64,000 nt of DNA from a virus. Taxonomy: Duplodnaviria; Caudoviricetes. The first letter of the stretch is position 1; each line of letters begins with the position of its first letter. Where the stretch lies: positions 18,562 through 82,561 of IMG/VR virus record IMGVR_UViG_3300021511_000006; one strand, written 5' to 3'. Under the pieces are notes generated by a model, which was not told the DNA's origin, did not search any database, and saw only the letters and a list, made by a program, of their open reading frames with translations. The translations under genes and the position numbers were made by a program. Positions 2,169 through 49,674 of this stretch are shown in pieces.

Positions 2169-2675
2169 TTAGTGATGGCTAATTCTGATGTACGGTAACC
2201 CACCCCAGTCGTTGCCATGTTCAAGTTCAGAATAGATGCCACCATCTTCATCACTGTAAGTAAAATAGTAGACATATCCATTATCCTTCCATGATTCAAT
2301 AAATTTCTTAGCTTTTTCTCTTGCTTGTTCGGTTTGCCTAATTTCTCCTTCTTCGTTGCATAATTCTTGCCATACTCGATTATCCCAAAGATCATCTTGT
2401 GATATTCCTTCCCTTTTACAGAATTCTTTTTCATAATCCCAAGCACCTACAATATCATCAGTATAACCACTTATGATTTCTTCAACCATTTTAGATATGC
2501 ATCTTTGACTAAGTTTTTGAGGAGTTTGATCTACTGCATCTCTAAAAATAATATCGACAAAATCAGATCTAAATATATATGGATTTAAATCTTGAATTTT
2601 GGTAATTTTACACGGCCAAATAACGATGAATGATGAAGAGCTAGAGTTAGTTACAAAGTCAGATTTTATTTTCAT
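2169..2675 (-). CDS. TNSS-motif family protein, copy 1
   Basis: N-terminus MKIKSDFVTNSSSSSFIVI, shared with five other ORFs in the window. Confidence 0.8.
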   Translation of the reverse strand: MKIKSDFVTNSSSSSFIVIWPCKITKIQDLNPYIFRSDFVDIIFRDAVDQTPQKLSQRCISKMVEEIISGYTDDIVGAWDYEKEFCKREGISQDDLWDNRVWQELCNEEGEIRQTEQAREKAKKFIESWKDNGYVYYFTYSDEDGGIYSELEHGNDWGGLPYIRISHH

Positions 2676-3045
2676 CTTTTTTTATTTCCTTATTCTTTTC
2701 TGATTTAAGATAACGATCCATTCCTATCCCTGCACAAACTAGTATGACGGCCCAACATACAGCCGACCCCCACCATGCAAATGCTACACATACTAGAAGA
2801 TTAAGAAAGTATATGGAATAATAAATCACTGATGGGTCGACTTGACATTTTACAAACAGACTAAATATAAACATAAGTGTAAGTATAGTTAATGCACACA
2901 TATAAATTATTGCAGCCCATCGTTGTCCATTATATCCAACTCCTGCAAGAATAAGAATAATCCCGAGTAGAGAAATTTCAATGCCATTTTGCAGAGTAAA
3001 GTGTTTTATTTCTTCGCTTATAGAATACTGTGTTCCTTTCTTCAT
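2659..3045 (-). CDS. Small multi-pass membrane protein
   Basis: About four hydrophobic segments. Likely start MKKGTQ at 3045 behind an AAGGGG SD. Confidence 0.6.
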   Translation of the reverse strand: MKKGTQYSISEEIKHFTLQNGIEISLLGIILILAGVGYNGQRWAAIIYMCALTILTLMFIFSLFVKCQVDPSVIYYSIYFLNLLVCVAFAWWGSAVCWAVILVCAGIGMDRYLKSEKNKEIKKDENKI

Positions 3046-3056
3046 TATATTCCCCT

Positions 3057-4061
3057 TTATAATCCCAATGGGCAACAGTTTGGCTTGCCTTGTAATATTT
3101 TTCTAAATGATTTGAACTTCATTGAGCGATTCCAGATGTAGTCAATGTCCTTATCATCTTTTATTGGAACGGCCCATATAGTGGCGTCTGCAAAGCTACA
3201 AGGCATCATTTTCATGTCGTGAGTAATATATGCTGACATTCTTGCACCTTCACATGTATCAATTGATATTTTTTGAAGTTTATCTGGTTCAACATAATTT
3301 AAAACATGATTGACTAAACAACTATCCATCCCAATTTTGAATTTAGATTTTGGATTGAATACGAGTTTTGCAAAAGTTGAAAATTGATACGTAGATGGTT
3401 TCCATTTAAGATTAGCTCCTGCCCCAGCTGGTTTGAATAATAAAAATATTACGGCATTTAATCTATTAATGTCTACCAGATCCCTTTTGTGTTTTTGTTT
3501 CCAAGGATTATGCCCGTATAAAATTTTAAGAGATTTGAAATATGAATCCTTAGTAAACATTAAATGAATATTAGTTTTTACTCCAGCATCTATCAATTTT
3601 GTTAGAGCTTCATATGTATAATCTCTTTCGTAATCCGAAACTGCAACCGCTCCACACATTTTGGATATTTCAACTTGTTTATCTGTTAAGTCAATGCCAC
3701 TGGTTGTGTAATTTGGGACGACTCCGTTCTTACGAGCATATGAAACTATTTCTTCAAAGTTCTCATGTTGATTTGGATCACCTCTGCCTCCCAAAGCAAC
3801 CTGATTTGTATGATGTTTAACTTGATCTATAATTGATTTGAAATCCTCAAGCTTCATGTTGGGATTATTTGTATGTCCTTGATAACAGAATTCACATTTA
3901 TGCTTACAATGCCCCATAACTCCAACATCTATTAACGAGGGAAGATATAAAGAGAATGGATCTTCTTTACCCTTAGTCCCTCGTAACATTTCAATGCCAT
4001 TTGTTGTATCAAAAAAAAGTTCATAATCAGAATTTGCGAAAAATTTATTGAATTTTATCAT
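3057..4061 (-). CDS. Radical SAM protein with SPASM/twitch-like C-terminus
   Basis: CKHKCEFC (CxxxCxxC), LGGRGDP, C-terminal CEGARMSAYI...MMPCSF...CCP. Confidence 0.85.
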   Translation of the reverse strand: MIKFNKFFANSDYELFFDTTNGIEMLRGTKGKEDPFSLYLPSLIDVGVMGHCKHKCEFCYQGHTNNPNMKLEDFKSIIDQVKHHTNQVALGGRGDPNQHENFEEIVSYARKNGVVPNYTTSGIDLTDKQVEISKMCGAVAVSDYERDYTYEALTKLIDAGVKTNIHLMFTKDSYFKSLKILYGHNPWKQKHKRDLVDINRLNAVIFLLFKPAGAGANLKWKPSTYQFSTFAKLVFNPKSKFKIGMDSCLVNHVLNYVEPDKLQKISIDTCEGARMSAYITHDMKMMPCSFADATIWAVPIKDDKDIDYIWNRSMKFKSFRKILQGKPNCCPLGL

Positions 4062-4456
4062 AATTTTTTAAACCTCACTTTCTCTTTGACAGTACCTTTC
4101 TCCATAGGTTTTGTGTCCATTTCCACTTTTTCTTTTTCGATTCGTCTCTCAACAACTTCTTTTTCTGACGTTTGCTTATCTTGTGCCTTGTCAATTTGTT
4201 CACCTTCTTTCTTTATATTTAGTTCTTCTCTGACTTTATTTTTTACTCCCTTAAATGCTTCTTTAGCTGAAGTGACAACGTCCTGAAGATTATCTTTGAT
4301 TTCTTTTTTTGATTCGTCCACAACTTCTTCCTGTGTTTCAACTACAATCTCTTTTACATCTGTTTTATCATCATCACAGAAAAGTATGTTAAAAATAAAA
4401 GCACATACAATAATTGTCCCTATACCTATGCCACCACTACTACTACTATTAGACAT
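4058..4456 (-). CDS. Membrane-anchored protein with highly charged C-terminal tail
   Basis: Start MSNSSSSGG at 4456 behind AAAGGAGG. One N-terminal TM segment, then an E/K-rich region. Confidence 0.65.
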   Translation of the reverse strand: MSNSSSSGGIGIGTIIVCAFIFNILFCDDDKTDVKEIVVETQEEVVDESKKEIKDNLQDVVTSAKEAFKGVKNKVREELNIKKEGEQIDKAQDKQTSEKEVVERRIEKEKVEMDTKPMEKGTVKEKVRFKKL

Positions 4457-4502
4457 TTTACAATCCCCTCCTTTATAAAAATTAAAGTTAAATAGTTTAT
4501 TC

Positions 4503-4523
4503 TTCATTTATTAATATATATAG
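4503..4523 (-). promoter_or_regulatory. Candidate phage promoter motif A (CTATATATATTAATwAATGAA)
   Basis: 20/21 identical to 21522-21542 on the + strand. Lies at the head of the leftward 4456-1112 gene run. Confidence 0.5.
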
Positions 4524-4558
4524 ATAATGGTATAAATCATGAACAATGTCTTAGCGAG

Positions 4559-4577
4559 TTTAGAACAAAATATAAAA
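4559..4577 (+). promoter_or_regulatory. Candidate late promoter motif B (TTTRGAACAAAAWAWAAAA)
   Basis: TTTAGAACAAAATATAAAA at the head of the + strand structural operon. Similar motifs precede terL and the hub-like gene. Confidence 0.5.
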
Positions 4578-4595
4578 TTGACCTCTGGTAATATA

Positions 4596-5123
4596 ATGAA
4601 CTATATAGATAAAATTTTAGAAGAAGTTGAAGATAATGAATCTGTTGGTACGTTTGCAATCGACTCATTTCCCAAAAGTCAAAAAAAGAAGAAAAGGCAA
4701 ATTATAAGAACTATTTATCCTGAGAGTAAAGATGAACAGATTCCTAAAAGAGCGATGGTTGATCTTGACGGAACAATTCATAGATATTCTAAAGGATATA
4801 AAGATGGAACAATTTATGATAACGCATTTGATAATGCAAAAGAAGTCATTAATTGGTTAAAACGAAATGGTTATGAAATAGTTATATTTACTACAAGAGC
4901 ATCAAAACAAAATGCTGATGAGCTTGGGGGTGATCATAAAGATCAAATAAAGAAAGTTGGTAAGTGGTTAAAAGATAAAGGTATTTATTTTGATCGGATT
5001 ACAGCTGAGAAACTTGCAGCAGATTTTTATATTGATGATAAAGCTATTAGTATTTATAATGGTGATTGGAAAACTGTTTTAAAAGTTATAAAGAAGCGTA
5101 TTAAGTATAGGGATATTAAATGA
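4596..5123 (+). CDS. HAD-superfamily phosphatase-like protein
   Basis: Motif I VDLDGTI, IVIFTTR, C-terminal YIDDKA. Likely start MNYIDK at 4596. Confidence 0.7.
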   Translation: MNYIDKILEEVEDNESVGTFAIDSFPKSQKKKKRQIIRTIYPESKDEQIPKRAMVDLDGTIHRYSKGYKDGTIYDNAFDNAKEVINWLKRNGYEIVIFTTRASKQNADELGGDHKDQIKKVGKWLKDKGIYFDRITAEKLAADFYIDDKAISIYNGDWKTVLKVIKKRIKYRDIK

Positions 5124-5890
5124 AATGTGAATATGGTTGTGGTCAAGAAGCAAACCATCAACTAAAAAATAATAAATGGTGTTGTGAACGTACCACAAAA
5201 AAATGTCCAGAAATAATAAGAAAAAGTTCAGAAGGGAGACGGGGAAGTAAAAGAACTAGAGAACAAATAATAAATATTTCAAAAGGTCATATTGGTCAGC
5301 TTTCAGAAAAGAAAGGATTATCTTATAAAGAATTATATGGAAATAAGGCAAATATAATTAAAAGAAAAATGCGAAACGCTAAATTACTAGTTAAGGATAT
5401 TAATAAAATAAAACAAAGATTTCCTTTTCTTTATTTAGTTGAACGTTTTAAAGTAGATAAATCTGACAATGTTTATGTAAAATGTAAGAATTCTGCTTGT
5501 GAAAGATGGTTCATTCCAACATATTCACAAATTTATGAAAGACATAGAGCATTAAATACACCTGCTGGTTTTGAAGAAAATAATTTTTATTGCTCTATAC
5601 AATGTAAAAATAATTGTATTTTATATGGATCATCTGCTAGCTTTTTAATAACAAATTCTGAACTTCAAATACTCAGTAAATTTGTTCTTGAAAGAGAAAA
5701 TTATATTTGCGAATACTGTGGGGAAAAAGCAATAGAAGTTCATCACATAAAACCTAAAAAATTAGAACCATTTTTTGCGCTTGACCCTGATTATGTTATT
5801 GCGGTGTGTAAAAAATGTCATTATAAATATGGACATAAAAACGGAACAAAATGCTCAACTGGTAATTTATCTGCAGCAATTTGTTCTTAA
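5120..5890 (+). CDS. Free-standing HNH homing endonuclease
   Basis: CEYCG..VHHIKP..VCKKCH HNH/Zn domain. Paralog of 49694-50704. Confidence 0.85.
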   Translation: MKCEYGCGQEANHQLKNNKWCCERTTKKCPEIIRKSSEGRRGSKRTREQIINISKGHIGQLSEKKGLSYKELYGNKANIIKRKMRNAKLLVKDINKIKQRFPFLYLVERFKVDKSDNVYVKCKNSACERWFIPTYSQIYERHRALNTPAGFEENNFYCSIQCKNNCILYGSSASFLITNSELQILSKFVLERENYICEYCGEKAIEVHHIKPKKLEPFFALDPDYVIAVCKKCHYKYGHKNGTKCSTGNLSAAICS

Positions 5891-5904
5891 TAGGAGATAA
5901 AACA

Positions 5905-6630
5905 ATGGGTATGAAATATTCATTTGCCGAACTTGGACAAAATATTTTAACAAGAAAGTTTGGTGGAACTACAGTTGGGGTTGCAGATCCTTACACTACA
6001 GGTTATCATTTTATATGGTTTGATAAGTTACCGCCTGCCTTAACTGCTTATGTTTCGGAAGGTATTAGTGGTATAACAAATCTCGGAGAAATACAGACAG
6101 TGCTTGCAGCATCTTGTCTATCGGTAACACCTCCAGGTGGAACTCTAAATAAAATTGAGTACACTGGGCTTGGTGGTGTCAAATGGGCTGTGCCGGGAAA
6201 TATCGACTATGGAAATACTGTATCTGTAAAATTCTTAGAATTTAACAAGACCCCAATTCTTGATATTATGCATTCTTGGGTTAAAATGATAAGAGATTAT
6301 AGAACTGGTATTACTGAATTAGTGGATGGATCGGAAGGTGAAGGATATACAAAGAAAACTTATGCTGGTCTTATGTATTACTGGACTACAGCACCTGATG
6401 CTAGAACAGTAGAATATTATGCAGCATATGATGGTGTATTTCCAGGAAAAGATCCACAAGATTTATTTACAAGCGATGTTGAAACAGTTGGTAGATTAGA
6501 TCTTGAGATCGAATTCAATGTAGATTACGCATGGCATGAACCTTGGGTACTAGCTAAGTGTAATACTTTTGCTGAAACATTTGCTAAAGTCGGAGATACT
6601 GTTAAAGGATATGGTGCAAGACAAGCATAA
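5905..6630 (+). CDS. Tail tube protein (T4 gp19-like)
   Basis: ATG at 5905 behind AGGAG. Tube-like signature (TPPGGTLNKIEY..GGVKWAVPGNIDY..VSVKFLE..W..YDGVFP..IEFNVDY) and tail-module context. Confidence 0.7.
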   Translation: MGMKYSFAELGQNILTRKFGGTTVGVADPYTTGYHFIWFDKLPPALTAYVSEGISGITNLGEIQTVLAASCLSVTPPGGTLNKIEYTGLGGVKWAVPGNIDYGNTVSVKFLEFNKTPILDIMHSWVKMIRDYRTGITELVDGSEGEGYTKKTYAGLMYYWTTAPDARTVEYYAAYDGVFPGKDPQDLFTSDVETVGRLDLEIEFNVDYAWHEPWVLAKCNTFAETFAKVGDTVKGYGARQA

Positions 6631-6643
6631 TTGAGGTAAACTA

Positions 6644-7111
6644 ATGTTACAAAAATCTTATCTTAAAGTCGTTGCTGCGTATATTGTTGATGAATCCACC
6701 CTTTCAAAATACGCTAAAATTCAGATGCTTCGTTTTATTGAGAATGATGCATCTGAAGCTCAGTTAAAAGTATTCATTACTGAAGGTAAAATACGAAGTG
6801 AAAGCGAGAACATATCAGAAATTGCTCCTATTGCTGCTGCATTAGTAATTGGTGCTGGTCTTGCAGTTGGAAAGGCGGTATATAATAAATTTTATAGTGA
6901 TGTTGCTAAGGCATGTGCTGGAAGAAAGCAGGATGATAAAAGAAGATGCATACGAGATTTTAAACTAAAAGCAAGTTATGCTAAATTAACAGCGTTAAAG
7001 AGAGAAATGGGAAAATGTAATCAGACAAATAACGTAAAAAAATGTAGAAATACTTTTATTAAGCATATGAAAAAAGTGGAAAAACAGATTCAAAAAGATA
7101 GGGTTATCTAG
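6644..7111 (+). CDS. Putative virion protein: shared N-terminal domain, hydrophobic segment and Cys-rich module
   Basis: N-terminus resembles 7126-7401. The KC-x8-C module resembles the repeats in 8870-10063. Confidence 0.55.
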   Translation: MLQKSYLKVVAAYIVDESTLSKYAKIQMLRFIENDASEAQLKVFITEGKIRSESENISEIAPIAAALVIGAGLAVGKAVYNKFYSDVAKACAGRKQDDKRRCIRDFKLKASYAKLTALKREMGKCNQTNNVKKCRNTFIKHMKKVEKQIQKDRVI

Positions 7112-7125
7112 GAGGTAGTTAAAAG

Positions 7126-15617: not shown

Positions 15618-18600
15618 TTACCTTATATTACATCTAGTTACATCTTGTGCGAATCCATGTCCAGAACTAAATGGGCCCGCGCCGCCACCACCACCAGAGG
15701 AAGTGGACATTTGATTGCTATTCGATGAAGCTACTACATTTGTGTTCATCATTATAGCAGCTGTAGTTTGTTTACTTCCTGTATCTACTTTTTCACCCAG
15801 TTGTTTAGAAAGTTCATTATAACCTCTTTTTCTTGATTCTTGATCTAAAGCAAACCTTTTTGTTTCAGTATCCATATAGTTTTCAAGTGCGTTATTTCTT
15901 CTAGTACTCACACTCTGAACTACGGATGAAGGATCAAATCCTTTTGGTACTGGTACTGGTTTAGGTACTGTACTTGCTGGTTCATTTAAAGCAGATTCTA
16001 ATTTACTTGCTAAAGTTCCTTCATGAATATCTTTAACCGTGCTCATAACTTTCTTAAAAATAGCACCAATTATTGGAAGGTTAGATACTTTTTCAATAAA
16101 TTTGTCTTTTAGATATGTATATGCTTTTTTCATACCAACTATTGGGAACATCATATTGTAAAGAACTACTTTTACAGTTTTTGATATTTTATCCAATAGA
16201 TCACTACCAAACATATTTTTTAGTTTTTTACCAATCCATACGAATGGCATTTTGATATATCCAAAAATAGTGGCCATAGTACCTCCAATCCATTTCATTG
16301 CTGATTGTACAAGACCAGGTTTTTCCCACCATGTTTTAAAACTTTCCCATACTTTTCCAAGAGTCATTTTAAAACCCCATTTCATTAATACCCATGCACT
16401 TTTTAAGCCTTCTTTTAACATTTTATATGGGAAGATAACAATATTCCATACACCTTTTACCATATCTTTTATAGCACCAAAAGTTTTGGACATACCTTCA
16501 GATATTTTCTTTCCACCAACGAAACCGAGAATACCCCCTGCTGCTGCTCCAATACCACCACCTATTAATGTACCAATACCTGGAACAATAGATCCAATTG
16601 CTGCTCCAAGAGCACCACCTTTCATGGCTCCATGTGTGGCACCAGCAAAACCGGTGTCTGAACCTCCAAGAAATCCAGCTAGTCCTCTAGTTAAAATACT
16701 TCCTGCAAAACCTTCTGGATCTCTCATTGCTGAAAATGCATCCCACGCTCCCATTGCACCACCAACTAAAAGACCAGCTCCTGCTCCTGCAAGTTTTCCT
16801 CCAAACTTAAGAACCTTTCCTCCGACACCAAGAGCTCGTCCAGCAAGTCCTTTTTTTGCAGCTCCAGTAGCTGCTTTTCCTGCCACCCCTTTAGCTGCTG
16901 CTTTTCCTGCTGCTCCTTTAGCTGCTCGTCCTGCTGCCATTGTTCCAAGTTTCTTTAATCCTAAAAATTGTAGAACGGGTGCTAGAAATCCCAAAAATTT
17001 ATTAATGACACGACCCATCATATTTTGAAGGAATCCTAAAGCAAGGACTATCATATCCCAAGTTTTGCTTCCTAATTTTCTTAGTCTTCTTCGAACTCCT
17101 TTTGTCTCTGAAAGATGTTCTTTTGCAAATTTATTACCTTTCTTTCCAAGATCTTCAAACTTCGCATCAGATTTCTTTCCTTCCTTAAGATCTTTTTCAG
17201 CCATCTCAGCAGTCTTTGAAATATTTTCTGCCATACTTGGAGAATGAGGACCTTCTCTTTCTTCTTGATCTTCTTTAAGTTTGCGTATTTTTTCTAGTTC
17301 AGATACTACAGTATCTTTACCTTGTTCATATTTTGATCTAGCCCATTCCTTTGTTGCACCCCATTTTTCTGTAGCTTCTTGAGGTACGCCCATGCTGCTT
17401 ACGACTCTACCAGGATGTGCAAAACCCCCAAATCCTGTGATACCAGCTTTAGCCATAGACCCTTTATCAAGTTCAAGTTTTTCAACCATTCTATCAAACA
17501 TTTTTTCAGAGAATGATTTTTGTTCCTCTATACCTTTTTCTCCAGTTAAGGCTTCTCGTATTTTATCGAACATTGTATATGTGACTTGTTTTGAAGGTGT
17601 AATTTCCTCACCAACAAGGGCTTCTGCTGCTGCCTTTGTATAGATTATAAGATCATCAATCTTTGGCATTAAGGTTGTATATGTCATTCCTAGTATATTT
17701 GATATTTTTAAAAAGACATTATGTGTTTGTGTTGCGCCCCTAACATCTCCAGCATAACCGCCTCTAACACCAAATAAAAATTTAATTGGGCTAACTATAG
17801 CTGACTTCATAATATCAGAAAATAGAAGCATATTTCTAAATGCTGGATGTTGAATAAGAGTTCTTTGCCATGCAATTCTCATACGAGAAGTCATACCAAT
17901 TAATCCAACTTTTAGTTCAAGAATGGCTCTTAATAATCTTTTTTGATGACCTTCTTGTTTTGTATCTCGAACATTTTGAAATTCTTTTATAAATGTTTGA
18001 ACTATGCTTCCCTGTTGTTCATCTCTTTCTACAACAACAGTTTCTAATTTTACTAAATTTTGAGACATTAATGATAATGTCTTATCTAGTTTCTTTGATA
18101 TATCTGCAGATTTTGCTTCATCAATTTGTTTAAGGAGTTTATCAATTGGAGTAACAACTTCTGCTGCATGAACTTCAACCATTCCTCCTTGTTTAATATA
18201 ACCACCTTCTTGTAGTTTTGGGGCCGCTCCTTCAATAGTCTGTTGAAGCTTTTCTAGATCTGATACTGTTGCTGGTTCTCTTTCCCTTTCTTCTTTTACT
18301 ATATCTTTCCCTTTTTTGAATATGTTAGCAATCCCATGACCAGCTTTTGATAATCCTTCAGACATTGCTGATCCGACTTTATCTTTAATTTTTCTGGCTG
18401 CACCTTGAAAAACATCAGTTTCCATAAATTTTGCAGCGAAGTAACCAAAGAGAGGAGTTGCTCTGGAAAGGGCCATAGCAATAGTGTTAGTTTTATTTAT
18501 ACTAATATCTTCACTAATTGCTTTACCGTATTGACTAATAGCCTGTGTAGTTGCTTTTCCCGTATCAACTGTAATAGTTTTAACACCTGTTGCTAGGGAA

Positions 18601-28863: not shown

Positions 28864-31860
28864 TTAATCAACTCCTATTACTGTTAGATATGAACTAAGT
28901 AATTTAACAGATTCGGGTACTGCATCTAATTCTTTACTATCATCGGTTAGATTTGACTCAATGAATTTACGAATATAACTATTTTTCAAATCAATACAGT
29001 CAGATTTAGTTGTGAGAAACTCATGTAAATTAATTGGAGCATCGTGCCCAATCAAACATGCTGTTTCCATTTCACCACATCTTTGACCACCCTTATTCTT
29101 TCTGCCGCCAAGAGGTTGTAGTGTTCGTCTTGCATATGCTCCAATACCTCTTGCTGCAAGTTTCTCTTCTGCAATATGAACCATTCTAAAGAAATGAATG
29201 AATCCAACAGCGATTCGATTAGCCAAATGAACTTTAGATAACGGATCATATATTTTATATTTAAATTCTGCTCCTGTAAATTTTAGGGCATCTTCAACTT
29301 GCTCCAATCTACATGATTGAAATGGAGGTTGGACGATGGTAAAATTTTGAATAAAGTCTTCCGTTATTGTTTTTGGAAGTTGTTCAAATAGTTGTTTAAA
29401 ATACCATCCATCTTCTGTACAATCAATTATTCGTATAAATTTTAGTAAGTATTTTCTTATGAGTTTCTGTGTTATATTCTCTTTGAGCATTTGTGACATT
29501 GATTGTTTTAGACAATCGACTGCCATAGATAAATGCATTTCGTATAACTGCCCAATATTCATTCTTGATATTATACCGAGAGGGTTAATACAGATATCTA
29601 AATGTCGCCCATCTGGTAGTTGTGGCATTTTATTATGAGGAACAATTCTGGAGATTACTCCTTTATTCCCATGTCTATTTGCCATTTTATCGCCTACTTT
29701 TACACGCCTGAAATGAACTCCATACATTTCAACATAAAGACCATTTATCCTCTCACGTTTTCGTTTATACTTTCCGGCGAATGAGAATTTATCTAGATTA
29801 TGATCTTTAATAGTTTTCATAGCTTGATCTTTAGGCATAACTTTTTTGAGGATTTTTTGTAGATCTTTTTCCTTGTCTTGTTGTTTATCTAGTTGCCCTT
29901 CAATCCAATCTTTATATTCAGGTATTTCTGTATTCCATAAGTTACCGTATAAATTAATTTCAGATATTATATAGTTTTTTCGAGCTTCTAATGGAATACC
30001 CTCAGAGAAAACTGAATAATATTCGTCAGTGTTTAATTTTTTAAGAATAGCATATGGATTGCCTGCTTTAATTGTTTCAAGTTCTTCTGGTAATGGTTTA
30101 TATTCGTCTTCTTTTAAAGAAAGAAGAACTTTATCTGGAGATAATGTGAATGACAAATCTTTATAGTGAACTGATGTTAATATATCATCATTAACCAGTC
30201 TATCTGAAATTACAATACCGTCTTCATAGTTATTTCCATAATATACCATAACGCCTGTAAGCAAGTTTCTTCCAATGTTAATATTCCCGTCTTTACAAAA
30301 ATTACTTTCTGCTAAAATATCTCCGGATTTAAATTTGTCACCCGATTTAACATATATGTTCATAAAGTCCATGTGTTCAACATAGATTTTTCTATGCTGA
30401 ACATCAAACAACTCAACGGTTTCGTCATTATATAGAACAATGATATAGTTACTGTCAATATGGACTACTTCTCCATTCTTTTTAGCTGTCTTAACAAATT
30501 GTGTGTATTTTGTATATAGACCTTCACAACCAGAGCTTATTAAAGGAGTATCAAATTCTCTTAACATAATTGATTGTCTCATCTGTGAAGATGCCATTTG
30601 CAATCTTGTTTGATCATCATGTTTAAGAAACGGAGTCATTGAAACAGGAATCGAAATTGGATTATCTTCACAAATATCATCTGTAAATTTTAAGTTTTCA
30701 TCAAGATGTACATTTGGAATCAGATTCTGTAAAACTCCACAGTTGTCTCTATCTGGAGTGTCAACTGGGCATAAACGCCCAAACATAGTTGGACAAATAT
30801 CTCTTAAATGTTTCGGAATATTTTCTCTTTTAAAACCACCTGGTCCAAGTAGACTTATCCTTGATAATTTTGTAAGTTCTTCAATTGGGTTTATTGAGAA
30901 ATCAAACTGAACAATATCTGAAACATTACAGTCTGATAAAATCTGGGTGGAGTTAATATTAAACTTTGGTTGTCTTGATGTTCTATTTGCAAAACATAAA
31001 TCAAATATAATCTTTGATACTTTTCCAATGACAACATATTCAAAACATCTTACCCGTTTATTTATAAATAGTGTATCATCAACAAATCCTGTTTTTAGAA
31101 TTTCAGACAACTCTTCTAAAATAGAATCATACTGCATAAACTTTGCTGTGAGTATATCAACTTTAGAAATTAGATCAATAGCATATAATATATCTTCGCC
31201 TTTTGACTTCGCATTATATCTAGAATACAATTTACCAAGTTCAAGAGTAAAATCATCAGTTGTGTATCCGATTGATTCTTCACAATAAGTTTTTAAATCA
31301 ACTCTTAATAAATCATAAAGATTACTACTGCTTGGGTCAATATCAAGGTCAAGTTCATATATTTTGGTAACTTCTTCAATACCATAGTACGCCAATAATA
31401 TTAAAGAAAATGGAACTTTTTTACCCAAGAAACTGATCTGAATGTGCGGGATTTCTTTATCTTTAAATACCATTATAGTTGCTACATTTGTTCGTAGTTT
31501 TATACTTTCACCCCTTGTAACAATGGGGGTATCAAAAAGCTGAAATAAAGGGATTTTTCTTCTTCCATTAATATAAACATAGTTACCATCAATTAATTTG
31601 GGGATAAATATACTTATATCAATTTCAGAGCTTCCCTTTTGTAATTTAATAACCAATGTTTGTTTAAGAGTCTTGGCGAGCTCTCCTGATGAGAAACGAG
31701 AATCTTTAAGACTAATCTCGTTTATCTGAAATCCAATTTCTTCAACAGGTTTAACTATTTCTTGTACAGTAGATAAAATTTGATCATAATCTAGTTGTCG
31801 TATTGTGAAGATATTTTTATCTTCGTTGTGAATTGTAGATATTGGATTAATTATTTTCAA
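28864..31860 (-). CDS. rpoB: Phage multisubunit RNA polymerase beta subunit (compact, 998 aa)
   Basis: RISLLGPGG, GRLCPVDTPD, MASSQMRQ, GNNYEDGIVIS, VGDKMANRHGNKGVIS, NPLGIISRMNIGQ, GGQRCGEME. Confidence 0.95.
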   Translation of the reverse strand: MKIINPISTIHNEDKNIFTIRQLDYDQILSTVQEIVKPVEEIGFQINEISLKDSRFSSGELAKTLKQTLVIKLQKGSSEIDISIFIPKLIDGNYVYINGRRKIPLFQLFDTPIVTRGESIKLRTNVATIMVFKDKEIPHIQISFLGKKVPFSLILLAYYGIEEVTKIYELDLDIDPSSSNLYDLLRVDLKTYCEESIGYTTDDFTLELGKLYSRYNAKSKGEDILYAIDLISKVDILTAKFMQYDSILEELSEILKTGFVDDTLFINKRVRCFEYVVIGKVSKIIFDLCFANRTSRQPKFNINSTQILSDCNVSDIVQFDFSINPIEELTKLSRISLLGPGGFKRENIPKHLRDICPTMFGRLCPVDTPDRDNCGVLQNLIPNVHLDENLKFTDDICEDNPISIPVSMTPFLKHDDQTRLQMASSQMRQSIMLREFDTPLISSGCEGLYTKYTQFVKTAKKNGEVVHIDSNYIIVLYNDETVELFDVQHRKIYVEHMDFMNIYVKSGDKFKSGDILAESNFCKDGNINIGRNLLTGVMVYYGNNYEDGIVISDRLVNDDILTSVHYKDLSFTLSPDKVLLSLKEDEYKPLPEELETIKAGNPYAILKKLNTDEYYSVFSEGIPLEARKNYIISEINLYGNLWNTEIPEYKDWIEGQLDKQQDKEKDLQKILKKVMPKDQAMKTIKDHNLDKFSFAGKYKRKRERINGLYVEMYGVHFRRVKVGDKMANRHGNKGVISRIVPHNKMPQLPDGRHLDICINPLGIISRMNIGQLYEMHLSMAVDCLKQSMSQMLKENITQKLIRKYLLKFIRIIDCTEDGWYFKQLFEQLPKTITEDFIQNFTIVQPPFQSCRLEQVEDALKFTGAEFKYKIYDPLSKVHLANRIAVGFIHFFRMVHIAEEKLAARGIGAYARRTLQPLGGRKNKGGQRCGEMETACLIGHDAPINLHEFLTTKSDCIDLKNSYIRKFIESNLTDDSKELDAVPESVKLLSSYLTVIGVD

Positions 31861-31862: not shown

Positions 31863-32048
31863 TTATATCCCCTTTTCTTTACAGTCTGATTTTAAAGCGT
31901 CCTCTAGTTTATCATCCTCAATATAATAAGGATCGCTATTCATTCTTAGAACATTCATTATAATTTGAGTTAGTCGAAGATCCGGTGCATCATTCCAGAT
32001 CTTCTCAACCAACCCTAATATACGTTTAATTCTAGCTGGATCTCTCAT
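31863..32048 (-). CDS. Small phage protein (DUF1040/YihD-like)
   Basis: MRDPARIKRIL..IW...PDLRLTQII pattern common in phages. Confidence 0.5.
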   Translation of the reverse strand: MRDPARIKRILGLVEKIWNDAPDLRLTQIIMNVLRMNSDPYYIEDDKLEDALKSDCKEKGI

Positions 32049-34750
32049 GTAATTTTCTCTCCCTTAAGTATTTTATCCATAACTCCGGAATATCTTCCTT
32101 CATATAATATTCCTTGAAGAATAGACTTCTTTGGATTTGAAAATGCCATAGCAAGAATCCAACTTTCTCGGTTAGGTACAGATTGTACAGAGTAGAAATT
32201 TGGTATAATTTTTTCTCTATCTTCTATCAGTCTCCATTTTTTGTAATCTTTCCACATCAATTGTGTAACTACACATTCAAAATGTATGTGATGAATATCT
32301 TTATCATATACATCAAATAAAGCATCAACTATTTCGGTATATGTTTTTCCTTTAAATTTATGTAATAATTCAGCAACAGATGCAAGATCTCCAATAATAT
32401 CTCTTTGTTTCATGGAGTTTTCTTTATTTTCTTCTCCCTTAATTACTGCTGAACCTGAAGTATGAAAAGTTCTTAAAACTAATTGTGTTCCCCTCTCTCC
32501 TAATGTTTGAGCAGCAATAATACCAACAAATCGGCTATTTAAACTTTTATATAAATCTCCATAACACTTTTTACAGAGTCTATCAGATTTACATAAAATA
32601 GGACTTCGTATCTGAATTAATTTTCCAATTATATCTTTATAATTATCTTGAGTAATTTTATATAGTGATGATTCATCTTCTGAAAGACACCATCTATTTA
32701 CTAACATATGAGCCTTTCGTTCTGTTTTTACATCGACTTCTAATAAGTCTGTAGTGCCACAATCATCAAGATCTTGATCAATCTGTAAGTTAGCACATGT
32801 AAAAATGAGTTTCCTTGATAGATATCCGCTTGTGCCCGTATTTAATGCAACATCTAAGAGACCTTTTCTACATCCATATGTTGAGAAGAAAAATTCTTTT
32901 TGATTCAAACCTTCAAGTAAAGAATTTTTAATTGGATGATCTAAAATCTCTCCATCAAAGTTTGAAATGAATCCTCTGGATAATACAAGTTGTTTAACTT
33001 GATCCCAACTTCCCCTTGCGCCAGATTCTATCATATATGAATATTTAAATTTATCTCTAAGTTCATGAATCAAACTAGGATCTGAAAATGCAACAATTTG
33101 ATCTCTTGTTTCCTTATGAGAATAAATATTATCTTTTATTTTGGATATCCCTTCAATTTTACAATCTTGTAAAGACATAGTACATCCATATAAAGTTGCA
33201 AATTTGAATCCTATCCTTTTAATATTATCAAGAACCTGTATAGTTATATCGCTAGAATATTTATCTTTAATATCATTAAGGATTGTAAGAAGTTCTTTAT
33301 TAGCAACAAGACCTTCAACTATTGGATAATCTTCTGGAAGTTGTTTGTTAAATTCAGCTTGACCCAATGGAAGGCTTTTATTTTTAAACATAACTGTCTT
33401 ATCTGAAAAGCTGGGTGATGTTAAATAATAAATTCCTAGTATTATATCTTGGCTTGGAGTTGTAGTAAGACCTTCATTTGAAGGGCTATTTAAATTAGAA
33501 GAAATTAAAATTTTCTTTAAAATCTCTTCTTTAGCTTCATTAGTAACCGGAATATAAACTGCCATTTGATCTCCATCAAAATCTGCATTGAATGGAGGGC
33601 ATGCTAAAGGATGTATTTTGATTACTTGATCTAACGTAATCTTAATTTTAAAAGCAAGCATGCTCAATTTATGAAGAGATGGTTGTCTATTTAATATACA
33701 ACATTCTTCACTTGTTATTTCTTCACAAACTTTTAATAGAACAGGTGAATAATTATCAATACATTGATCTACAAAATCAATCGCCTTATTAAGAAGTTTA
33801 AATTTACCAAGTTGAATGATTCTCTTGGCAATCGGAAGTTTAAATAATTCAAGTACCATTAAATATGGTAGTTTACACTCATATAGTGAAAGAGTTGGAT
33901 CTGGAGTAATAACTGCGCGTCCAGAAAAATCAATTCTTTTACCAAGAATATTCCCTCTAATTAATCCTTCTTTTTTTGCCATCTTTTCCAAAATTCTGGT
34001 ATACAACTCACTCACATCTTTTTGTAGTTGTTTGAAATAAGTATAGTAAAGAGCTTTATCTCGATGAATATCAATGATCGTATCTTTCATCGCTTCTTTC
34101 TTGGTGAGTATTTGGACATAGTAACGATTGATTTTGTCCATTAGTTGTTTTGCTTCTCCAGAACTTTTTGATGTTGGTCTAAGATCAGGTGGGAGAACAA
34201 TAATTTCGTCTATGAGCAGACTATTAATATTATTTAAAATAATTTGCCATTCAGCAATTCCTTCTTCAATCATTTCTGTTGCAATGTTTTTAACAAGAAC
34301 TTCAATAGCTTCTGCACGTTCCCATGTTTCTACTCCTTCTGGGATTTGTTCGGGTATAGGTGTAACAACAAGTTCATCTCCAGTTTTATAGAGAACGCTT
34401 TGATCATTTTTCATAAGATTATCAATTGCTTTTTTCAAAGTCTTCCCACCCAGATCTATCAGTAGATCATAAAATATTGGATTTACAACTGGTATTGGTA
34501 TTTTGATTTTTGCAAATCTTTTTCTTCGAGCATCACTATTTATAATATCAACTCCACAGTCATCACATTTGCCTCCAGATCTTGATACTCCATGATATGT
34601 ACCACATTGACAAGTATAATTCCTCATTGGACCAAATATTTGTTCAGAAAATAATCCAAATGGGTGAAACTTTTTCTTTCCAAATGTTTTTAGAGACGTC
34701 ACTTCGTCTAAGGGTTCACAAAATGTTTCATAATCTAATAACTTAGGCAT
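32045..34750 (-). CDS. rpoC: Phage multisubunit RNA polymerase beta' subunit (compact, 901 aa)
   Basis: Zn finger CQC..CDDC, GKRIDFSGRAVI, LNRQPSLH, catalytic NADFDGDQM, TSGYLSRKL, TQLVLRTFH. Confidence 0.95.
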   Translation of the reverse strand: MPKLLDYETFCEPLDEVTSLKTFGKKKFHPFGLFSEQIFGPMRNYTCQCGTYHGVSRSGGKCDDCGVDIINSDARRKRFAKIKIPIPVVNPIFYDLLIDLGGKTLKKAIDNLMKNDQSVLYKTGDELVVTPIPEQIPEGVETWERAEAIEVLVKNIATEMIEEGIAEWQIILNNINSLLIDEIIVLPPDLRPTSKSSGEAKQLMDKINRYYVQILTKKEAMKDTIIDIHRDKALYYTYFKQLQKDVSELYTRILEKMAKKEGLIRGNILGKRIDFSGRAVITPDPTLSLYECKLPYLMVLELFKLPIAKRIIQLGKFKLLNKAIDFVDQCIDNYSPVLLKVCEEITSEECCILNRQPSLHKLSMLAFKIKITLDQVIKIHPLACPPFNADFDGDQMAVYIPVTNEAKEEILKKILISSNLNSPSNEGLTTTPSQDIILGIYYLTSPSFSDKTVMFKNKSLPLGQAEFNKQLPEDYPIVEGLVANKELLTILNDIKDKYSSDITIQVLDNIKRIGFKFATLYGCTMSLQDCKIEGISKIKDNIYSHKETRDQIVAFSDPSLIHELRDKFKYSYMIESGARGSWDQVKQLVLSRGFISNFDGEILDHPIKNSLLEGLNQKEFFFSTYGCRKGLLDVALNTGTSGYLSRKLIFTCANLQIDQDLDDCGTTDLLEVDVKTERKAHMLVNRWCLSEDESSLYKITQDNYKDIIGKLIQIRSPILCKSDRLCKKCYGDLYKSLNSRFVGIIAAQTLGERGTQLVLRTFHTSGSAVIKGEENKENSMKQRDIIGDLASVAELLHKFKGKTYTEIVDALFDVYDKDIHHIHFECVVTQLMWKDYKKWRLIEDREKIIPNFYSVQSVPNRESWILAMAFSNPKKSILQGILYEGRYSGVMDKILKGEKIT

Positions 34751-43094: not shown

Positions 43095-44141
43095 TTAATC
43101 CTCCCGTTTATCTGAGTGAACTAGTGTGCCCACTTCCTTATTTGTTCTATCAAAATATTGACTCATCATTAAGCATGAATGATTACAGAGGTCACAAAGA
43201 CGCTTTTTATCTGTTCTTATTCCAGTTAATACATCACTGGACAAAAGTTGTGGATATGCTGAATCGAATAGATTTTTTATGGTGTTATATGGAGTTATTA
43301 CTCCTTTAATTCTTAAACATAATCTTATTGTTCCATCAGAGTCAATTGTTAAGTTATGTATACCATCCTCAAGCTCGCAGTCAAAATTTGATGGTAATGT
43401 ATCAAACATTCTTGGAATTAAAATATCTTTCATATGAACTAACAATGAATGGTCGTGCATAATATCAAGCAACTGTCCTGCTAAACTTAATGTTGGTTGA
43501 ACTAAAAGATTCTTATCCCTAATATTTGAAAAATCGTAATAGATGTTTTTTGTAATATCTACAAATGTAATATCGCTATATATTTCTTCCTTACTTAAAT
43601 TACAGATAAGTTGGTGTAAGAAATGTTGATTATGTTTCATAACTGTTATTTCAGCTACAACATCTTTAACCAACCCTGCTGCTTGAAGTTCTTTTAATCT
43701 TTGTAATCCTTCAATACTTTTTCTGACTCGATCTTTGTTGAGTTCAGGCTCGTTAAAAATAGGATCAACAGAACTTGTAAAACCTTCTATATGACCTACT
43801 TTATTAAATAGTTTTATCAATGCAGGTTGAACTTCAGGTGTGTTATTACTGATTATTGTATAATATATTTCATTATCATTACAATAATTAATAATGTCTG
43901 CAAGGTCTGGTCTTAATAATGGCTCGCCTCCATAAAAGATATTGAAGACATTTGGATTATGTATTTTTAATTTTCCTAATGTTTCAATAACAACTTCAGT
44001 TGGCATTTCGTTTTTGATATAATGTTTCATATCAGGATAGCAAGAAGGTTTATTTTCATAGTTTCGAACTATACCACAGTAATCACATTTCAAATTGCAC
44101 TTCCTTGTGAGAAGCCAATTTACAATTCTAACTTGACTCAT
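43095..44141 (-). CDS. Radical SAM protein with C-terminal Cys cluster
   Basis: CNLKCDYC, YGGEPLL, C-terminal C..CLRI..CDLCNHSC. Likely start MSQVRI at 44141. Confidence 0.9.
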   Translation of the reverse strand: MSQVRIVNWLLTRKCNLKCDYCGIVRNYENKPSCYPDMKHYIKNEMPTEVVIETLGKLKIHNPNVFNIFYGGEPLLRPDLADIINYCNDNEIYYTIISNNTPEVQPALIKLFNKVGHIEGFTSSVDPIFNEPELNKDRVRKSIEGLQRLKELQAAGLVKDVVAEITVMKHNQHFLHQLICNLSKEEIYSDITFVDITKNIYYDFSNIRDKNLLVQPTLSLAGQLLDIMHDHSLLVHMKDILIPRMFDTLPSNFDCELEDGIHNLTIDSDGTIRLCLRIKGVITPYNTIKNLFDSAYPQLLSSDVLTGIRTDKKRLCDLCNHSCLMMSQYFDRTNKEVGTLVHSDKRED

Positions 44142-44142
44142 A

Positions 44143-44523
44143 TTAATCTCCAGTTTCAAGTAATATCGTTCCGTCATATTCTTCTATAATATCACGAAAT
44201 CTGTCTATTCGATAACAGTCATTTCTGTCTATTCTAGCATAAGCGATAAACTTACCCCTATCTAATATCTCAGCAGCTTCTTTATAACATATTTTATCCA
44301 TATTATAAAAATCGCTAGGAACTCCTCTTGCTTTTGCAATCCAATCGTTTCTTCCTGCTTCGGTAAAATTGATAAGATTTTTTTTATTCTTGAAGAATCT
44401 AAAAGATTCATCATGATGGAATTCGAATTTCTTTTGTATATCTTTCCTCAATGTTTTGTTGCCTAGTTCAATAATGAACATTGTGGACGAGCTATTTGTT
44501 ATAAAATCAAGATTTATTTTCAT
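44143..44523 (-). CDS. TNSS-motif family protein, copy 2
   Basis: MKINLDFITNSSSTMFII. Confidence 0.8.
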   Translation of the reverse strand: MKINLDFITNSSSTMFIIELGNKTLRKDIQKKFEFHHDESFRFFKNKKNLINFTEAGRNDWIAKARGVPSDFYNMDKICYKEAAEILDRGKFIAYARIDRNDCYRIDRFRDIIEEYDGTILLETGD

Positions 44524-44903
44524 TGATTTTCTACCTTCACTACTAATTTTTTAAGCTCCCTTAAGCTTATTGGAGAAACTGTGGTTGCACCCTCTCCATC
44601 AACATCAATCGCTTTTAAAATTAAATCATCTTTTCTTAAGATATCAAATAAAATTAAAGAGTCCCACCCATACGGACCAAGCATAATTTCTTTTCCATCT
44701 TTAAGAAGTTTTCCCTCTTTAATTATCTCGTTTAATGTACATTCAATTTCTTCATTACTTGGCTTTTCAACTTCTATATAATCTTTATATTCTTGTGAAT
44801 GTCTAATTCTATTTATTTCGATATTATAGTCTTCTGGTATAAAGATTATAAAAGCAGAAGATGAACTATTTGTTATAAAATCCATTTTAATTTTCATAAT
44901 CAT
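44520..44903 (-). CDS. TNSS-motif family protein, copy 3
   Basis: MKIKMDFITNSSSSAFII. Confidence 0.8.
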   Translation of the reverse strand: MIMKIKMDFITNSSSSAFIIFIPEDYNIEINRIRHSQEYKDYIEVEKPSNEEIECTLNEIIKEGKLLKDGKEIMLGPYGWDSLILFDILRKDDLILKAIDVDGEGATTVSPISLRELKKLVVKVENQ

Positions 44904-44906
44904 TCC

Positions 44907-47108: not shown

Positions 47109-48114
47109 AATTCTGAATTATATCAAATGCTTCTTTGGTATACTCATCTACATCTATTTGTGGAATCTCTTTGATCTTAACAAACCGATTAATTCTATCT
47201 TCCTGAGACATTGAACTTGTAATCCCTCTATCAGTAATATCGGCTTCTGTTTTATCAACAATATTAAAGTCATCCTTAAAACCTGTTATATCGACTTTTT
47301 CCTTCATAAGAACTTTGACATGATGGCCATCATCCTTAGCTTGTTGGGCAGCTTTTAACGCGTCATCTTTATTAAGACTATTCATTTCAATTTCAATATA
47401 TTTTCTATATTGAATTATCGGAATTTCATCAACTTGAAGAGTATCTGTATCGACAACCAGAAAGCGTTTTTCTTCCCCTTTCTCGCCCCAATCTAATTGA
47501 ATTAGGGAACCAACATAATAGATTTTAATATCATCTCTTATAATTTGTTGAGGTTTATGATAATGTCCTAACAGTACCAATTCATATCTTCCAATTAAAT
47601 CTTTTATTCCAATGTCAGAAACGATACTTATCCCTGAATTTAATACTCCTTCATTTAATCCAAAATGAGATATAAGTATCCTTCCCTTATTTTGTTTGAC
47701 TTGATTTACAATATCATAAGAATATGGGATACATATTAAATCATTATCTACAGTTTGAAATTGAGTTACCCATTCAACATTAATATAATTCCTTATTGGT
47801 CTTAGTGCTGATATTGCATCTGCTCCCTTTCCAGATAAGTCATGATTCCCATCAAGTACCCAAAATTCTAAATCTTCATATTGTTCAAAGAAATCTAACA
47901 TTATCTCTTGAGCAATTGCATAGATGATTGATTTGTTGTGATAAAGATCACCGCCTATTATGATTCTTTTAATATCATTTTCACAACAATAATCTCCTAC
48001 TTCACAAAGAGCTCTTTTTATACTATGCAATCGCTCAGGAAGATTTGTTTCATCTTCAATTTTATCTTGACTATATCTCGAAAGATGAAGGTCTGCAATA
48101 AATGCGAATTTCAT
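47098..48114 (-). CDS. SbcD/Mre11/gp47-like metallophosphoesterase nuclease
   Basis: ADLH, GGDLYH, GNHD, SHF, GHYH. Confidence 0.95.
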   Translation of the reverse strand: MKFAFIADLHLSRYSQDKIEDETNLPERLHSIKRALCEVGDYCCENDIKRIIIGGDLYHNKSIIYAIAQEIMLDFFEQYEDLEFWVLDGNHDLSGKGADAISALRPIRNYINVEWVTQFQTVDNDLICIPYSYDIVNQVKQNKGRILISHFGLNEGVLNSGISIVSDIGIKDLIGRYELVLLGHYHKPQQIIRDDIKIYYVGSLIQLDWGEKGEEKRFLVVDTDTLQVDEIPIIQYRKYIEIEMNSLNKDDALKAAQQAKDDGHHVKVLMKEKVDITGFKDDFNIVDKTEADITDRGITSSMSQEDRINRFVKIKEIPQIDVDEYTKEAFDIIQNCEV

Positions 48115-48347
48115 AATTTATTCATTTCTCCTTTTTGTTTAGTAACCTCCTTTTGTTTCGGAGGAGTCGTAGCTTTTTCATCTACTTTTTCTTCTTGTGT
48201 TGTAGTTTGTGGTTGTTTACTATCAGAATCTGACTTTGCAAGAAAGAGTCCAAACAGAAGAATCATTATAATACCAGTTATTGCTAAACCAAATAGCAAG
48301 TCAACTAATTCAAAACCTTTTTGATTATTTATCTTTTTAAGAAACAT
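48111..48347 (-). CDS. Mini-protein with variant type IV prepilin signal
   Basis: NNQKG|FELVDLLFGLAITGIIMILLF followed by a short charged tail. Paralog of 48359-48601. Confidence 0.65.
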   Translation of the reverse strand: MFLKKINNQKGFELVDLLFGLAITGIIMILLFGLFLAKSDSDSKQPQTTTQEEKVDEKATTPPKQKEVTKQKGEMNKL

Positions 48348-48358
48348 TTTATTCTCCT

Positions 48359-48601
48359 TTACAGCTGATTCATTTTACCATCTGATTTAGTAATCTCCGG
48401 TTGTTTTGGCGGACTTGGAGCTTTTTCATCTACTACTTTTTCTTCCTGTTGTGTTATAATTTTTATATTATTTTCTGACTTTGTAGTCATCGAATAAAAA
48501 TGTGGAACTACAATTGCTATCAAAATAGCAATTATTGATATAGCGACCATTAACTCAAGCAAAGTAAAACCTTTTTGATTATTTATTCTTTGAAGTATCA
48601 T
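48359..48601 (-). CDS. Mini-protein with canonical type IV prepilin cleavage/methylation signal
   Basis: NNQKG|FTLLELMVAISIIAILIAIVVP. Likely start MILQR at 48601. Confidence 0.8.
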   Translation of the reverse strand: MILQRINNQKGFTLLELMVAISIIAILIAIVVPHFYSMTTKSENNIKIITQQEEKVVDEKAPSPPKQPEITKSDGKMNQL

Positions 48602-49016
48602 TTTTATCATTTCTTTGTATAGATTTAAACATAGATAAAACATCCATATTATTAATTAACATATTTTCAATGATTTCTTCTTTCACACCTTGTATAATAT
48701 TATTTCCTTCTCCATTCATTTCGAGAGATGCTAAAATAAACTTATGTTCGTTGCATAGATCAAGTATGGAATTATATATGGTAAAGTGAACTCCATCTGT
48801 TCCATACGTCCAAAGATTATCACCTTTTTTTAAAGATGCTATACAGTCATATATTTCATCAAATGCTTCTGCTTCTTTAGCCTCTTCATATGTCTCATCA
48901 TAATTATTATTTATATATGTTTTTATTTCGTCTTCATTTATATGGAAGCTATTTGGTACCATAACAACAAAGGCAGTTGATGAACTATTTGTAACAAAAT
49001 CAGATTTAATTTTCAT
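48579..49016 (-). CDS. TNSS-motif family protein, copy 4
   Basis: MKIKSDFVTNSSSTAFVV. Confidence 0.8.
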   Translation of the reverse strand: MKIKSDFVTNSSSTAFVVMVPNSFHINEDEIKTYINNNYDETYEEAKEAEAFDEIYDCIASLKKGDNLWTYGTDGVHFTIYNSILDLCNEHKFILASLEMNGEGNNIIQGVKEEIIENMLINNMDVLSMFKSIQRNDKNDTSKNK

Positions 49017-49306
49017 TAGTCATAACATCCTTTATATTCTATATGATCTTCATTTATTCCGATCTCTAATAAAAACCATAACATATCAAAGTTATCCATT
49101 CCTGTATCACCCATAATTAAATCACCCGTTTCACTTATACCCCAACCACTATGATCTGGAGTATACTCCAAAGATTTAGGATGATATTGTTTACAAAATT
49201 CATGATGATTTTGAATAAGAAGAATTTGAATGTTGGATAAGTTTCTTTTTTCAATAATGAAACTAGCACATGAACTGTTAGTTACAAAATCCGTTTTAAT
49301 TTTCAT
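49016..49306 (-). CDS. TNSS-motif family protein, copy 5
   Basis: MKIKTDFVTNSSCASFII. Start at 49306, TAATG-coupled to copy 6. Confidence 0.8.
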   Translation of the reverse strand: MKIKTDFVTNSSCASFIIEKRNLSNIQILLIQNHHEFCKQYHPKSLEYTPDHSGWGISETGDLIMGDTGMDNFDMLWFLLEIGINEDHIEYKGCYD

Positions 49307-49674
49307 TACCGATTTTCCCAACATTCTTCAATATGCCCTGGTTCACTTTCTATTCCAAAACAATCCATAATCTGTTGTTGAACTCTTGTTTTAAATTCAT
49401 TTAATGTTTCATCATCTTTCATTTTGGTATATTCAATACCAACTATTAATCCATCATAATCATAATCAGGACCGGATGTAGAAGTGAGATCGCTTCCCTC
49501 AGTAAAAATATCAGCTTCATAGTTGAATGCTTCTTGAAGATCTATATCTTCTCCTTCTTTTTCTTTAACCTTTTGAATAATATTTTCTGGTACATCATCT
49601 AACTTTATATGAGTTCCAATAACTACAAATGATGATGAACTACTGTTGGTCACAAAATCCATTTTAATTTTCAT
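49306..49674 (-). CDS. TNSS-motif family protein, copy 6
   Basis: MKIKMDFVTNSSSSSFVV. Confidence 0.8.
   Translation of the reverse strand: MKIKMDFVTNSSSSSFVVIGTHIKLDDVPENIIQKVKEKEGEDIDLQEAFNYEADIFTEGSDLTSTSGPDYDYDGLIVGIEYTKMKDDETLNEFKTRVQQQIMDCFGIESEPGHIEECWENR

Follow-up and report, generated by a model that had tools for sequence, protein, structure and literature searches.

The 64,000-nucleotide window analysed here (positions 18,562 to 82,561 of the IMG/VR virus record IMGVR_UViG_3300021511_000006; Duplodnaviria, Caudoviricetes) contains six minus-strand open reading frames (ORFs), c1 to c6 (Table 1), whose products all start with the peptide MKI(K/N)xDF(V/I)TNSS(S/C)xxF, here called the tag. 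Sequence comparison indicates that the tag is a portable N-terminal module placed on at least five unrelated small bodies, and its genes are found with genes for one clade of radical S-adenosylmethionine (SAM) enzymes, the rSAM1 clade, in viruses, bacteria and archaea. Together, tag and enzyme point to a so far undescribed system for docking whole proteins or modifying them chemically. We propose that the tag is the recognition site, and probably the modification site, of the rSAM1-clade enzyme, one enzyme serving many clients, and on the comparative and modelled evidence we give this about an even chance (roughly 0.5).

An earlier note on this DNA, made by reading the sequence alone, had described the six ORFs as dispersed paralogs. 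Their N-termini were indeed as it described, but the word paralogs is too strong, since the tag is all that they demonstrably share; from residue 19 to the end, the six bodies have no significant pairwise BLASTP similarity (best E 0.54). The coordinates first given are right for five ORFs, while c3 runs from 44520 to 44897, with its tag at the second Met (ending it at 44903 adds Met-Ile). The tag logo reads M K I K x D F V/I T N S S S [T/S] [S/A] [F/Y] [V/I] [V/I] and holds about 60 bits across 18 positions. All six ORFs have the tag at residue 1, with F7 and the invariant N10-S11-S12, followed by a hydrophobic strand. In a six-frame scan of the window, TNSS after a tag-like start was confined to these ORFs, and the core DF[VI]TNSS, expected 0.00065 times in the window from amino-acid frequencies, was absent from 100 shuffles. 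The tag codons for Ser (TCT, AGC, AGT, TCA), Thr, Val and Asp differ synonymously among the copies. Therefore, selection acts on the peptide, and neither selection on the DNA nor recent DNA copying or gene conversion accounts for the likeness.

When a profile built from the six proteins was run against 1.84 billion representatives, 3,173 protein clusters (clustered at 50% identity) matched with E <= 0.001. In almost all of 148 inspected representatives, about 70-290 residues long, the tag stands at residue 1; the exceptions are miscalled starts and second copies within tandem fusions. P0093, P0097, P0122, P0153 and P0163 have two tags each, one at residue 1 and one internal, and are fused tandem genes or read-through gene calls. 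Stripped of the tag, the bodies form families of the c6, c3/c4, c2, c5 and c1 types and a bacterial type, B. In profile-profile comparisons between body families all probabilities were below 10%, except for c3 and c4, which are one family. Within families the tag is invariant, with body identity going down to about 30%. Such invariance on unrelated, drifting bodies implies that the constraint comes from an external partner or from shared chemistry. Furthermore, a tag-less bacterial paralog, A, aligns with the tagged B from residue 13/14 onwards (hhalign probability 97.6%, E 4e-12), and the tag is therefore a separable add-on. That the tag also heads large non-globular proteins is shown by a protein of about 480 residues from a metagenome-assembled genome (MAG) of the Tepidanaerobacteraceae (L118:7905-9440), which consists of the tag, a hydrophobic segment and a long coiled coil. 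A 511-residue ORF in L118 was considered as a fusion of tag and enzyme and was rejected, as it is a coiled-coil protein.

None of the tagged proteins was assigned to a family by Pfam, NCBIfam or PADLOC, the ESM Atlas gave nothing but unnamed viral clusters for c1, and no family model was found that describes the tag or its enzyme. The PHROG family phrog_7397 matches c1 over its full length (E 2.3e-13) and the other copies just at its first 19-43 positions. The c1 body has conserved residues Y136, Y140, D142, E152, H153 and H168. AlphaFold2 models built from family alignments were confident for c6 (predicted local distance difference test score, pLDDT, 85.6) and c1 (92.3), and the order of their secondary structure elements differs. 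In both the tag is modelled as coil (residues 1-13 of c6, pLDDT ~52; residues 1-12 of c1, pLDDT ~50), and the first core strand begins at Ser13/14 and spans residues 13/14-20/23. The possibility, raised in the earlier note, that the motif is buried strand 1 of one shared domain is thus contradicted by the loose tag in two models of different architecture and by the unrelated tag-stripped profiles, c3/c4 excepted. For neither c6 nor c1 did Foldseek or VIA-align give a convincing match to a solved fold (highest Z 4.5, within the stated noise range of the tool).

The positions of the tagged genes relative to the two radical SAM genes of the window, rSAM1 and rSAM2, are as previously described: c3 and c2 directly precede the gene at 43095-44141 (rSAM2), and c1 comes after that at 3057-4061 (rSAM1) with one small membrane ORF between. 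Viral loci were picked by similarity to proteins of the window phage. An rSAM1 ortholog lay upstream on the same strand in 74 of the 80 loci selected with c1, at a distance of at most 30 nt in 32 loci and at most 500 nt in 55; four of the six remaining loci stop at a contig end. Two to six tagged ORFs were present in 33 of these 80 loci. Selection with c6, which is independent of c1, gave a same-strand rSAM1- or rSAM2-clade gene in 55 of 75 loci (39 of 46 when the locus was at least 15 kb), with as many as 10 tagged ORFs per 20 kb. One 20-kb stretch of a 312-kb viral contig (L160) has ten tagged ORFs and one of a 224-kb viral contig (L199) has seven, each with one rSAM1-clade gene alongside.

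Cultured phages carry the pair as well. An rSAM1 homolog was found in 168 of 50,697 records, two tagged proteins were found in 174 and 175, and the breakdown by genus is nearly the same for enzyme and tagged proteins. Margaery (Pseudotevenvirus) and KP15 (Slopekvirus) were inspected directly, and RB16, Lw1 and Miro are among the listed matches. In Margaery the tagged proteins are gp115 and gp120 and the enzyme is gp166. Since Pseudotevenvirus and Slopekvirus form one clade, this co-occurrence amounts to one or two independent observations. Searches with c4 and c6 against cultured phages by tblastn gave no matches, for which the low-complexity filter is perhaps responsible.

Both enzymes exceed the Pfam cut-off for Radical_SAM (PF04055, 29.5 bits), rSAM1 with 35.4 and rSAM2 with 49.9 bits, and the cluster motif CX3CX2C is visible in both translations. 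For the SPASM domain (PF13186) they remain below the cut-off of 21.5 (17.1 and 18.1 bits), whereas a bacterial member of the rSAM1 clade exceeds that of the SPASM model TIGR04085 (32.4 versus 27). In 106 rSAM1-clade sequences C52 and C59 of the SAM-cluster motif are invariant, as are C248, C270, C288 and C330 in the C-terminal part; judged by these residues, rSAM1 looks functional, and the four C-terminal cysteines fit an auxiliary Fe-S cluster. Of the named families, PqqE, MftC, WgkB, NirJ/AhbD and the maturase of tungsten-cofactor oxidoreductases come nearest. These are SPASM-type peptide or cofactor maturases, and all matches are far under the family cut-offs. Sequence matches in the Protein Data Bank were marginal (SkfB, PqqE, ChlB). 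The two window enzymes have no significant similarity to each other (BLASTP E 0.16). A wider rSAM2 clade was sought; the alignment-based scan gave just 13 viral loci, all of them close relatives (at least 56% identical). A c2-type gene abuts rSAM2 in nine of the ten informative loci. With respect to the co-occurrence asked about in the earlier note, the outcome is thus strongly positive for the rSAM1 clade, in phages and independently in bacteria and archaea, and for rSAM2 it comes down to synteny in one narrow lineage, so that the link of the tag to rSAM2 is at most suggestive.

Tagged genes were also found in species-representative genomes, namely in Bacillota, Bacteroidota, Campylobacterota, Chloroflexota, Desulfobacterota, Nitrospirota, Spirochaetota, Ignavibacteriota and MAG contigs of archaea. 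A tagged gene for about 135 residues stands directly before a radical SAM gene for about 345 residues in 17 of 28 bacterial or archaeal loci, and these enzymes belong to the rSAM1 clade (E 1e-42 to 1e-58 against the window enzyme). Sixteen of the 17 cassettes have the order large protein, A, B, enzyme. The large protein matches the Avs2 models of PADLOC (E 1e-13 to 4e-26) and is an Avs2-like STAND NTPase with variable N-terminal domains (trypsin-like peptidase, LmuA-like, SMEK). An Avs1a-like metallo-beta-lactamase gene is sometimes present upstream. In Tissierella praeacuta (L113:3464-5390) such a gene (E 2.8e-79) and a separate gene for a trypsin-like peptidase precede the cassette, so that effector domains vary around a constant core of A, B and enzyme. 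No peptidase or protease is conserved in the cassette. The Agrobacterium tumefaciens Ach5 plasmid pAt also encodes the cassette, with both small genes annotated as 'hypothetical'; its tagged gene is Ach5_RS27025 and its enzyme gene Ach5_RS23250. Linkage to SbcCD was considered and rejected, as the large bacterial neighbour is Avs2-like and not SbcC-like.

Because co-occurrence with rSAM1 is strong and the motif is not a buried common strand, a family of radical SAM clients or a shared docking tag is the best reading. The earlier note had proposed the same for phages; the system is however not restricted to them, as it has a bacterial form in Avs2-like defence operons. We suggest that a dedicated radical SAM enzyme with an auxiliary Fe-S cluster recognizes its clients by the tag. 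In the window this enzyme would be rSAM1, possibly together with the lineage-specific rSAM2. It would most likely bind residues 1-9 as an extended strand and carry out radical chemistry on the invariant Asn-Ser-Ser-Ser just ahead of the first core strand, and a single enzyme would in this way mature a battery of different phage proteins. The physical binding, the covalent change and its chemistry are what we infer here, and counter-defence or host takeover would be guesses at the role of the phage copies.

Several points weigh against this proposal. Firstly, its support is comparative or modelled throughout, and many of the viral loci come from related phages, so that their counts are not independent events. 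Secondly, enzyme and tagged genes are non-adjacent in Pseudotevenvirus and Slopekvirus, about 20 kb apart, and the adjacency of c2 and rSAM2 may be plain synteny because rSAM2 is confined to one phage lineage. Thirdly, a RiPP recognition element (RiPP, ribosomally synthesized and post-translationally modified peptide) is not recognizable in the enzymes, and fusions of tag and enzyme were sought among the longer tagged proteins and none was found, although this is weak evidence. Lastly, the low pLDDT of the tag could equally reflect pairing in an oligomer.

The alternative that survives best is that the tag serves for docking only. It would bind the enzyme as a regulator, inhibitor or targeting subunit, or bind another partner such as the STAND NTPase, without ever being covalently changed, and the substrate of the enzyme would lie elsewhere. 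Linkage and modularity fit this too, and it has a parallel in the KpAvs2 operon, in which Avs2 is encoded along with Avap1, a radical SAM protein, and Avap2, a small protein of the DUF6375 family (Bechon et al., 2024, PMC11564622). Defence requires Avap2, which binds Avs2, Avap1 is required against phage T2, and loss of the small accessory protein appeared toxic; the mechanisms of Avap1 and Avap2 were both unknown in that study (PMC11564622). Against docking alone, an invariant Asn-Ser-Ser-Ser beside an extended strand and an enzyme with affinities to SPASM/twitch maturases are more typical of a substrate site. Moreover, the tagged genes and enzyme of the window have SbcCD-like, pilin-like and HNH genes as neighbours and, unlike the KpAvs2 operon, no adjoining STAND gene (the rest of the window was not searched for STAND genes). 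We therefore regard docking without modification as unlikely, though as the most serious competitor.

The bacterial cassettes and the KpAvs2 operon have in common an Avs2-type STAND NTPase, a radical SAM enzyme and an accessory protein of about 130 residues. The cassette order STAND, A, B, enzyme differs from that operon in gene order and number, and the Avap1-type enzyme is shorter (300 residues) and only weakly similar (E ~1e-11). The DUF6375 examples start with MKIW+GYGxEHSxNLVMIG, which is tag-like by eye, but homology is without statistical support. Membership in DUF6375 (PF19902) was considered and rejected at the sensitivity of the Pfam model and hhalign: the tagged proteins, the A proteins, four cassette-bearing genomes and one plasmid were all without a PF19902 hit, and the hhalign probability was less than 4%. 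In two DUF6375 operons that were inspected the order is enzyme, DUF6375, Avs2. These are in Nitrospirota (L131:1495-1896 and L132), where the Avap2-type gene lies between a radical SAM gene for 300 residues and an Avs2-like gene. By analogy, the cassette probably works like KpAvs2-Avap1-Avap2 without being a member of that system.

A second alternative is that the tag is a swapped strand by which small proteins oligomerize, their common fold having diverged beyond detection, and that the radical SAM gene is a pathway neighbour without direct contact. The first core strand follows the tag immediately in both models, low confidence in a monomer model is what a swapped strand would give, and A and B are paralogs that may pair. 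However, self-association does not readily account for near-invariance in over 3,000 clusters whose bodies are unrelated, since the tag of each family would be free to change along with the surface it pairs with, and the tag is also found on the coiled-coil protein of 480 residues. Oligomerization furthermore leaves the linkage to a single enzyme clade in phages, bacteria and archaea unexplained, and it seems to us improbable.

Autoprocessing at Asn-Ser or Ser-Ser, intein-like or pyruvoyl-forming, had been put forward in the earlier note on account of these bonds, and position 13 of the tag is sometimes Cys. Nothing else speaks in its favour: known self-processing sites lie within folded cores while the models show the tag as loose coil ahead of bodies that are unrelated, and the radical SAM partner, which such a reaction would not need, is nearly always present, so that we consider it very improbable. 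Hardly any weight is left for a capsid-targeting, packaging or export signal, which the conserved extreme N-terminus on varied small phage proteins recalls: in T4 internal proteins a capsid-targeting sequence of about 10 N-terminal residues ends in a site for the prohead protease (L/I-x-E), but the tag has no Glu and thus no such cleavage site, it occurs in T4-like enterobacterial phages whose capsid-targeting consensus differs, and it also heads proteins of Avs2-like operons on bacterial chromosomes and a plasmid.

Returning to the proposed client recognition by an rSAM1-clade enzyme, three kinds of known radical SAM system resemble it in part. As in RiPP systems (SkfB, MftC, PqqE and WgkB-type), one maturase gene lies beside several genes that share an N-terminal recognition sequence. 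RiPP precursors are however short peptides with a leader and a released hypervariable core, whereas the clients here are folded proteins of 96-170 residues (up to 480) with unrelated bodies; those of 96-168 residues have confidently folded bodies, and a conserved protease is lacking. The conserved part is also just 18 residues long and, unlike RiPP leaders, probably includes the target. The anaerobic sulfatase-maturating enzyme, of the radical SAM/SPASM kind, also has whole proteins as its targets and changes a Ser or Cys within a short motif close to their N-terminus; here the tag lacks (C/S)xPxR, the bodies are not sulfatases and no model of this enzyme is among the best hits listed. The FxSxx-COOH system likewise joins a fast-diverging small protein with one conserved terminal peptide to a radical SAM/SPASM enzyme and, like the bacterial cassettes, is tied to STAND/AP-ATPase conflict systems (Haft and Basu, 2011; Kaur et al., 2020, PMC7159879). 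Its conserved piece is C-terminal and released by a metallopeptidase, in contrast to the N-terminal tag and the cassette without a conserved peptidase. The literature covered on the motif, on phage radical SAM tag systems and on follow-ups of Avap1, in which most subscription journals were not included, does not describe the system.

If the enzyme acts on the tag, radical chemistry would be a very widespread means of marking whole proteins (more than 3,000 clusters; jumbo phages, T4-like phages, bacterial and archaeal defence operons), and this would offer a concrete hypothesis for the unexplained radical SAM accessory genes of Avs2-type immune operons. A more far-reaching reading joins the two sides: matured by the radical SAM enzyme, B would serve a branch of Avs2-type bacterial immune receptors as adaptor or arming subunit, and phages, having taken over the enzyme, would have spread the tag to many small bodies, which once matured would act as decoys and jam or divert the receptors, all by way of a new radical modification of the N-terminal Asn-Ser-Ser-Ser. 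As a whole this is doubtful and has a small chance of being right; if true, the decoys would correspond, in prokaryotes, to the CARD-only or pyrin-only proteins of viruses. The pair is carried by cultured phages (RB16, Lw1, KP15, Margaery and about 170 others) and by the Agrobacterium plasmid, and these ideas are thus directly testable.

Table 1. Tagged genes, radical SAM genes and other features of the window
Feature	Position	Strand	Match
c1, tagged, 168 residues, MKIKSDFVTNSSSSSF...	2169..2675	-	PHROG phrog_7397
Small predicted membrane ORF between the rSAM1 gene and c1	2659..3045	-	no PHROG match
rSAM1, 334 residues, C-terminal auxiliary-cluster (SPASM/twitch-like) region	3057..4061	-	Pfam Radical_SAM; PHROG phrog_7293
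First gene of the rSAM1 operon, membrane-anchored Lys/Glu-rich protein, 149 residues	4058..4507	-	no PHROG match
Split multisubunit RNA-polymerase beta-like genes	28864-31473 and 32045-34750	-	PHROGs 3295, 3148, 3015, 2987
rSAM2, 348 residues, C-terminus with CX2CX3C	43095..44141	-	Pfam Radical_SAM
c2, tagged, 126 residues, its end meets the rSAM2 start	44143..44523	-	tag
c3, tagged, 125 residues, same body family as c4	44520..44897	-	tag
c4, tagged, 145 residues	48579..49016	-	tag
c5, tagged, 96 residues, Cys at tag position 13 (TNSSC)	49016..49306	-	tag
c6, tagged, 122 residues, heads the c6-c5-c4 array	49306..49674	-	tag

Besides the split RNA-polymerase genes, the window phage encodes a large terminase, a baseplate wedge protein and a topoisomerase II of the T4 type. 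Contigs related to it reach 223-248 kb and, together with RNA-polymerase genes of its own, this identifies it as a jumbo phage. No cultured phage is a close relative, and blastn of the c2-c6 region gave no match. The tagged genes lie in two regions. The rSAM1 operon is ordered as the 149-residue protein, rSAM1, the small membrane ORF and c1. The membrane ORF is present in close relatives only, and in many other loci c1 directly follows the enzyme. The product of the first gene has an internal Met followed by SNSSSSGG, a membrane helix and a Lys/Glu-rich tail, and it resembles the tag in being rich in Ser but lacks MKIKxDFVT. The order of the second region is c6-c5-c4, two pilin-like ORFs, SbcD-like and SbcC-like genes, c3-c2 and rSAM2.

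The two small ORFs between the SbcD-like gene and c4 (48111-48347 and 48359-48643, both on the minus strand) have N-termini like type IV pilins (NQKGF(T/E)L(L/V)(E/D)L...), and one of them matches the PHROG family 'pilin' (phrog_3433, E 1.6e-6). The true start of the second probably lies further downstream, because the listed start overlaps c4. Lastly, a gene like an HNH endonuclease stands beside each of the tagged-gene regions, at 5120-5890 (+) and 49694-50704 (-). The two products have similar Cys-rich N-termini and a near-identical C-terminal region of about 80 residues (...HH..P.KLEPFFALDPDY.I.VC.KCHYKYGH...STGNL...C).

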